Shown: one piece after another, positions 6,029 through 6,435 of the stretch
Numbering within the stretch: position 1 is the stretch's first letter
Layout of the letters: every line of letters begins with the position of its first letter
Assembly (NCBI RefSeq): GCF_003334305.1
Contig: NZ_QOWS01000030.1
Direction: 5' to 3' (one strand)
DNA length: 41,498 nucleotides
Origin: Escherichia coli
GTDB taxonomy: Bacteria > Pseudomonadota > Gammaproteobacteria > Enterobacterales > Enterobacteriaceae
Translations under genes and position numbers: made by a program
The notes under the pieces: model-generated
Seen by the model: only the letters and a program-made list of their open reading frames with translations
Database searches by the model: none
What the model was told of the DNA's origin: nothing

Positions 6029-6322
6029 TTAAAAGAAGAAGAAAATCAGCCCGACAATGAGAACAATATCGGCAAGCAATGGGCAAAAAATCCCTTGCCA
6101 AAGAACCTTCTGCGGACGAAAGCCCACGCCGTGAATCACACCAGCACAGACGGCCCACATCAGCAATAAACCATGCCAGATTTCCAGTTCACTGGTCTTC
6201 GCGGCAAAACGAGATGGGTCCCAAAACATACATCCTGCTAACAGAAGCGCCATCACGAAGGAAAGCGCCCGCAGGGGGCGCTTGTCCATTACCGCATACA
6301 AAGTCGCGATAATCTTACTCAT
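6029..6322 (-). CDS. ybgE: Cyd operon protein YbgE, small inner-membrane protein, 97 aa
   Basis: ORF 6029..6322 minus; MSKIIATLYAVMDKRPLRALSFVMALLLAGCMFWDPSRF... Confidence 0.9.
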   Translation of the reverse strand: MSKIIATLYAVMDKRPLRALSFVMALLLAGCMFWDPSRFAAKTSELEIWHGLLLMWAVCAGVIHGVGFRPQKVLWQGIFCPLLADIVLIVGLIFFFF

Positions 6323-6435
6323 CAGATGTCTTCTTGACCGGCTTTGCCTGATTCGACGTGTTCAAGCGCCAGCGCGGTGATTACCCCAAACGAACAGGCA
6401 AGAAGCGTTCCCAGAATCCATGCGAAATACCACAT
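6322..6435 (-). CDS. cydX: Cytochrome bd-I accessory small subunit CydX (YbgT), 37 aa
   Basis: Not in the ORF track (below its length cut-off). Reverse complement from 6435 reads ATG TGG TAT TTC GCA TGG (MWYFAW), matching the known CydX N-terminus; stop TGA at 6322..6324 overlaps the ybgE start codon. Confidence 0.85.
   Translation of the reverse strand: MWYFAWILGTLLACSFGVITALALEHVESGKAGQEDI

Follow-up and report, generated by a model that had tools for sequence, protein, structure and literature searches.

The 37-codon gene cydX in an Escherichia coli cyd operon and its one-nucleotide junction with ybgE

Single-helix subunits of cytochrome bd oxidases

The small protein CydX belongs to the cytochrome bd-I complex of Escherichia coli, the activity of which needs it, and its deletion leads to oxidase-deficient phenotypes (PMC6005532, PMC4325964). 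CydX has more than 300 known homologues, and about 80 of them still lacked annotation in 2014 (PMC4325964); Y3, W6 and G9 are the most conserved residues, and W6 is invariant in the known homologues (PMC6005532). The helix of CydX runs along CydA, where it contacts transmembrane helices 1, 4, 5, 6 and 7 near heme b558 (PMC8951039). In the passages of PMC8951039 that cite Hoeser 2014 and VanOrsdel 2013, CydX is regarded as needed for the oxidase to assemble stably and to be active, and the conclusions of VanOrsdel et al. 2013 on CydX are given here as relayed by PMC6005532, PMC8951039 and PMC13189123. A study of 2026 describes CydX as the interface of the native bd-I dimer, via a Met1-Trp2 motif and a leucine zipper, and as forming with CydA a secondary ubiquinone pocket that involves Thr10 (PMC13189123).

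Two other small subunits are comparable with CydX. AppX of cytochrome bd-II (CbdX/YccB; NF011333; 7OSE, 7OY2) is a paralogous single helix of the same Pfam family, has the N-terminal pattern MWY..W..G.LL.CS in common with CydX and binds the equivalent position on AppC (PMC8951039), but it has 30 aa and no acidic C-terminal tail, and its gene follows appB. CydS of the Geobacillus thermodenitrificans bd oxidase (5DOQ) is also a single-helix accessory subunit, which occupies a comparable place beside CydA near heme b558 (PMC8951039), whereas it belongs to the short-Q-loop oxidases and is called similar but not homologous (PMC13189123); the PDB search with CydX as the query returned no sequence match to CydS. 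As for the boundary between cydX and the next gene, ybgE, the closest described arrangements are the termination-reinitiation systems. The cydX-ybgE pair resembles them in its overlapping stop and start codons (TGATG), in a downstream gene without a Shine-Dalgarno (SD) sequence and in the conservation of this arrangement across genera, and it differs in that coupling is inferred from sequence and in that 1 nt is shared (TGATG), and not 4 nt as in the ATGA type.

The cydX gene and its operon in the window

The window analysed here is a 41,498-nt stretch of the E. coli chromosome (contig NZ_QOWS01000030.1 of assembly GCF_003334305.1), which extends from tRNA-Lys/cpoB to ybgA in opposite-strand reading. 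It comes from a non-K-12 strain, the identity to K-12 being about 99.2% towards cyd/tol and about 96% in the opposite part. On its minus strand, a 37-codon ORF of 114 nt occupies 6435..6322, precisely where the sequence-only reading had located it, with the ATG at 6435..6433 and the TGA stop at 6324..6322, and it is translated into the 37-aa peptide MWYFAWILGTLLACSFGVITALALEHVESGKAGQEDI. In nine PDB entries, among them 6RKO, 6RX4 and 9RZV, CydX chain X matches this peptide with 37/37 identity (E 8.9e-22). The peptide reaches 70.7 bits (E 9.1e-20) against a cut-off of 31.6 with NCBIfam model TIGR02106 (cytochrome bd-I oxidase subunit CydX, equivalog), and 53.8 bits (E 1.9e-14) with Pfam PF08173 (YbgT_YccB), covering model positions 1-26 of 27. 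Moreover, all 114 nt are the same as in K-12 cydX (b4515), without a single nucleotide difference, and b4515 is annotated in K-12 MG1655 as 'cytochrome bd-I accessory subunit CydX'. The earlier proposal that the ORF encodes CydX (YbgT) thus concurs with the PDB chain, the two family models and the RefSeq and K-12 annotations, and by sequence identity the ORF is cydX, formerly ybgT (b4515). Compared with K-12 CydX (b4515; TIGR02106, PF08173, chain X of 6RKO/6RX4), it agrees in DNA, peptide, 14-nt distance from cydB, 1-nt overlap with ybgE, operon and neighbours; there is no difference at the level of the gene, while the surrounding strain differs. No evidence speaks against this identity, which is already known, already annotated in reference genomes and already resolved in structures.

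All of the 5426 complete E. coli genomes contain the 1.8-kb cydX region, and RefSeq annotates cydA, cydB, cydX and ybgE in every E. coli genome among those listed, the coordinates in the 100% identical region being 4266..4379 for cydX and 4379..4672 for ybgE. Two 'plasmid' places of cydABX were counted in the E. coli genome collection. In PLSDB, which holds different records from that collection, 12 records match window 5900..7700 (the cydABX-ybgE locus); the eight of them that are listed measure 0.28-4.9 Mb and are non-mobilizable. A plasmid-borne cydABX was rejected for these listed PLSDB records, the sizes of which are those of chromosomes or chromosome pieces filed as plasmids.

The gene cydX is located directly downstream of cydB on the same strand, and the same order is present in RefSeq and in six other genera. 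Upstream in the operon, cydA (7605..9173, minus strand) encodes cytochrome bd-I subunit I, 522 aa as annotated (1569 nt in RefSeq), and cydB (6450..7589, minus strand; TAA at 6452..6450) encodes subunit II of 379 aa and is identical to K-12 cydB. The start of cydA contains two adjacent ATGs at 9171..9176 (minus strand; MMLDIVELS), of which RefSeq uses the second (522 aa) and the mechanical ORF the first, from 9176 (523 aa); the second ATG lies 5 nt from an AAGGAG SD. The cydB-cydX spacer (6436..6449, minus strand) is 14 nt long, GTAAGGAGCTAAAA, and it includes the SD of cydX, TAAGGAG at 6448..6442 (minus strand), separated from the ATG by the 6-nt spacer CTAAAA. The predicted duplex of this SD with the 3' end of 16S rRNA has -8.4 kcal/mol at 5-6 nt spacing, a value reached by about 1.7% of the 20-nt windows of this strand. 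Downstream, ybgE (6029..6322, minus strand) encodes a 97-aa 'cyd operon protein YbgE' (PF09600; 185.2 bits with NF007881, cut-off 116). A GC-rich hairpin followed by a T run is present at 5984..6007 (minus strand), 22 nt downstream of the ybgE stop, with a 9-bp stem including 5 GC pairs and the tail ATTTTTACGC; it was called by a terminator-like scan as a consensus match only, and it is likely an intrinsic terminator that closes the cydA-cydB-cydX-ybgE unit. Further neighbours of cydX are mngB on the upstream side and, after ybgE, ybgC and tolQ on the downstream side. In this arrangement, cydX is the third gene of the cydA-cydB-cydX-ybgE operon and is translated, 14 nt past the end of cydB, from its own strong SD.

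It had been claimed that the ORF was lost through a length threshold. It is indeed absent at 60 aa, the default threshold of the ORF lister, which over 6300..6460 reports ybgE, cydB and a pair of plus-strand shadow ORFs and nothing else, and it is listed at min_aa 20; but cydX is part of the current reference annotation, and only an ORF track with a naive length threshold would miss it. The same threshold would discard two further small genes in the gltA-sdhC intergenic region, ybgU (35 aa; 25570..25677, plus strand) and ybgV (10 aa; 25661..25693, plus strand), both with 100% identity to K-12. A plus-strand ORF of 426 aa at 6420..7700, which exceeds cydB (379 aa) in length, lies antisense to the entire cydB gene and reaches over the start of cydX. 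Its best family hit is not credible (E 0.015, 14 bits with a cut-off of 627), and it was rejected as a gene on that ground; it is probably a shadow ORF, which could mislead an ORF track.

Several other elements were observed in the window. A tRNA at its edge (5..77, minus strand) was matched by Rfam and is tRNA-Lys lysT according to RefSeq, and the CpoB/ybgF intercistronic RNA thermometer (RF02782, 142 bits) is located at 1004..1142 (minus strand) between pal and cpoB. The small regulatory RNA SdhX, at the 3' end of sucD (K-12 b4764), is present at 15482..15582 (minus strand) with 100% identity, and it was not reported by the Rfam scan at gathering thresholds. In addition, the sdhB-sucA spacer (21914..21945) has 32 nt in the window versus 132 nt in K-12 and strain E2865, and the sucB-sucC spacer (17668..17681) has 14 nt versus about 195 nt in K-12, being short in E2865 as well; these spacer differences probably reflect the presence or absence of REP-type intergenic repeats.

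The peptide of 37 aa consists of one hydrophobic helix (residues ~1-24) and a hydrophilic acidic C-terminal tail, with Kyte-Doolittle means of 2.05 over residues 6-24 and -1.21 over residues 25-37. Its N-terminus, MWYFAWILG, contains all of Y3, W6 and G9, and the Met1-Trp2, leucine-zipper and Thr10 residues are all present as well. For a comparison among genera, homologues of YbgE were searched and the loci of six of them, from Klebsiella, Salmonella, Cedecea, Shimwellia, Cronobacter and Enterobacter kobei, were compared with the window; the seven genera (E. coli of the window and the six others) are all Enterobacteriaceae, with 74-100% YbgE identity. Each of the six other genera has a PF08173 gene of 37-38 codons between cydB and ybgE. 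Residues 1-14 of CydX are invariant in the seven genera and residues 1-24 nearly so (only S15A, V18I and I19V), and the C-terminal tail is variable. Relative to the window, 11-16 of the 20-26 nucleotide differences in cydX of the other genera fall at third codon positions. Within E. coli, two divergent alleles differ from the window cydX by synonymous third-position changes only (T20, ACC to ACT; E25, GAA to GAG) and have the same protein accession.

These data bear on two other explanations of the ORF. It might be a chance open frame in the cydB-ybgE spacer that is not translated, given that short ORFs of 20-50 codons are plentiful in the region (dozens on both strands of the same 8 kb in the ORF list at min_aa 20), and it is indeed by homology, not by its length of 37 codons, that this ORF is counted as a gene above chance. 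However, cryo-EM of the purified enzyme has resolved this very peptide as a chain in multiple structures, the curated family cut-offs are passed, the SD is strong and correctly spaced, and the substitutions among the seven genera are of the coding type and leave the N-terminal helix nearly invariant. An untranslated chance ORF was rejected on the basis of the solved-chain identity, the family scores, the SD and the substitution pattern, and its probability is practically nil. Equally negligible is the probability that the peptide is AppX/CbdX, the paralogue in bd-II, instead of CydX of bd-I. The N-terminal 23-24 residues do resemble those of AppX (MWYLLWFVGILLMCSL...), with an E value of 0.015 to chain C of 7OSE and 21.7 bits with NF011333, but the likeness is confined to this part, and the NF011333 score is below the cut-off of 57 whereas the CydX model gives 70.7 bits against 31.6. 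The gene also follows cydB, not appB, and the identity to the bd-I chain X is 100%; AppX was therefore rejected, the score being below the cut-off and the gene context being wrong.

As CydX, the peptide is assigned to the cytochrome bd-I complex through its 37/37 sequence identity to the solved chain X in nine E. coli bd-I entries. In the solved structures, the helix packs against CydA transmembrane helices close to heme b558 and to the quinol-binding Q-loop. From the role described in the literature, it would stabilise the assembled oxidase and its di-haem active site, and in the dimeric enzyme it would provide the CydX-CydX interface and one wall of the secondary ubiquinone pocket. If CydX were absent, the activity of cytochrome bd-I would be lost or strongly reduced, as expected from the literature on the identical K-12 protein.

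The junction between cydX and ybgE

The stop codon of cydX (TGA, 6324..6322) and the start codon of ybgE (ATG, 6322..6320) form a TGATG junction at 6320..6324 on the minus strand, in the context ATC TGATG AGT, with the A at 6322 in common. The sequence-only reading was right that the stop and start share 1 nt, but it had classified the junction as ATGA-type, which is a 4-nt overlap with the start upstream of the stop and does not fit the cydX/ybgE sequence. The 1-nt overlap is found in 7/7 genera, as TGATG in six and as TAATG in Enterobacter kobei. It is kept though the flanking codons differ: the last residues of CydX across the genera are EDI, EEI, EEH, EDS and VES, and the first residues of YbgE are MSKII, MKFIA, MEKII, MEYVI, MKNII, MKRLI and MNAII. 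This comparative evidence on coupling is the new result here. As the seven genera belong to one family, the Enterobacteriaceae, shared ancestry and not selection may account for part of this conservation.

The two genes of the junction were also compared by their SD duplexes, the strength of which is a thermodynamic proxy only, -4 kcal/mol or better being reached by 22% of random 20-nt windows. A strong duplex is predicted for cydX in the seven genera (-7.9 to -8.7 kcal/mol), and no usable SD was found for ybgE in any of them, where the best upstream duplex is -1.8 to -3.8 kcal/mol. In the window, the best anti-SD duplex in the 20 nt upstream of ybgE is only -2.4 kcal/mol at 13-nt spacing, which is within background. 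Because the cydX stop and the ybgE start overlap by 1 nt and ybgE has no SD, ribosomes finishing cydX would probably reinitiate at the ybgE ATG, by which the synthesis of YbgE would be tied to that of CydX. The conserved overlap together with the SD-less ybgE is the pattern predicted by termination-reinitiation, and it supports this mechanism. Thus, the translational coupling suggested by the sequence-only reading gains comparative support from seven genera while it remains an inference; it is supported, not proved, and on the sequence evidence we consider it reasonably probable. In the literature, no paper was found on the synthesis of YbgE by ribosomes terminating on cydX. When a kanamycin cassette was placed between cydX and ybgE, no oxidase-related phenotype resulted (PMC6005532), which means that the function of CydX is independent of the junction and is silent on the expression of YbgE.

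Two other readings of the junction have to be weighed against coupling. Short overlaps are common in bacterial operons, whether the genes are coupled or not, and the 1-nt overlap could be mere compact packing, with ybgE expressed independently of cydX translation, through de novo initiation at the ybgE ATG or through a transcript of its own that starts at a sigma-54 site within cydX. Such a transcript is conceivable, as the sigma-54 ChIP-seq site IS08 of K-12 (motif TGGGAACGCTTCTTGCC) is intragenic in cydX, in sense orientation and 82 nt upstream of ybgE, so that the peak points at ybgE (PMC4591121), and the motif is present in the window at 6397..6413 (minus strand), in cydX codons 8-13. However, IS08 is in the lowest occupancy class (fold above threshold 1) with a low motif/PSSM score of 6.8, and most intragenic sigma-54 sites are transcriptionally inactive (PMC4591121). 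Across the seven genera the GG element of the motif is preserved, but Cedecea and Shimwellia carry an altered -12 TTGC. Furthermore, ybgE has no SD in the seven genera, and the overlap survives the change from TGA to TAA. Independent expression of ybgE is accordingly the less likely course, though one that retains an appreciable chance. Much more remote is the possibility that programmed ribosomal frameshifting at the junction yields a single CydX-YbgE fusion protein, which is brought up by predicted proteins of 131-135 aa carrying both PF08173 and PF09600 in the protein collection (P0002-P0006, P0012 and P0018, relatives of window 6029..6435; P0003 represents 8 member sequences). In these entries, which gene callers produced from single short contigs of public read-archive assemblies, the reading passes from the cydX frame into the ybgE frame at varying positions in the 3' half of cydX, after CydX residue 25, 30 (two different variants) or 34. 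In addition, the wild-type ybgE frame is closed inside cydX by an in-frame TGA at 6364..6362, inspection of the sequence revealed no slippery heptamer at the junction, and CydX is a free 37-residue chain in the solved structures. A programmed-frameshift fusion was rejected because the shift positions differ between entries and the records are single contigs, and it is highly improbable; the 131-135 aa chimeras look like indel errors or sporadic frameshift mutations. Taken as one claim, the explanation that the ORF is cydX, with its own SD, a role as a subunit of the oxidase and probable reinitiation at ybgE, is the best one and is held with near certainty.

What the locus means for CydX and YbgE

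As a discovery, the finding of cydX means little: its K-12 annotation (b4515) is many years old, dedicated NCBIfam and Pfam models exist, and the protein has already been studied genetically and biochemically and resolved by cryo-EM. It does, on the other hand, illustrate in textbook fashion how a naive ORF-length threshold drops a functional small protein, and it can serve as a positive control for a scanning pipeline, a true 37-codon gene having been recovered from raw sequence. The added value is modest and consists in the 1-nt overlap and the SD-less ybgE start being conserved in seven enterobacterial genera. This conservation makes coupling a reasonable, testable hypothesis and shifts attention at the cyd locus from the identity of cydX to YbgE, to its function and its coupling to CydX. 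We suggest, tentatively and as a rather doubtful extension of the sequence data, that YbgE might be made only by ribosomes that have just completed CydX, which would fix the CydX:YbgE ratio and would let YbgE act together with CydX. If this is true, YbgE may, for example, help to insert or assemble the small subunit into cytochrome bd-I.
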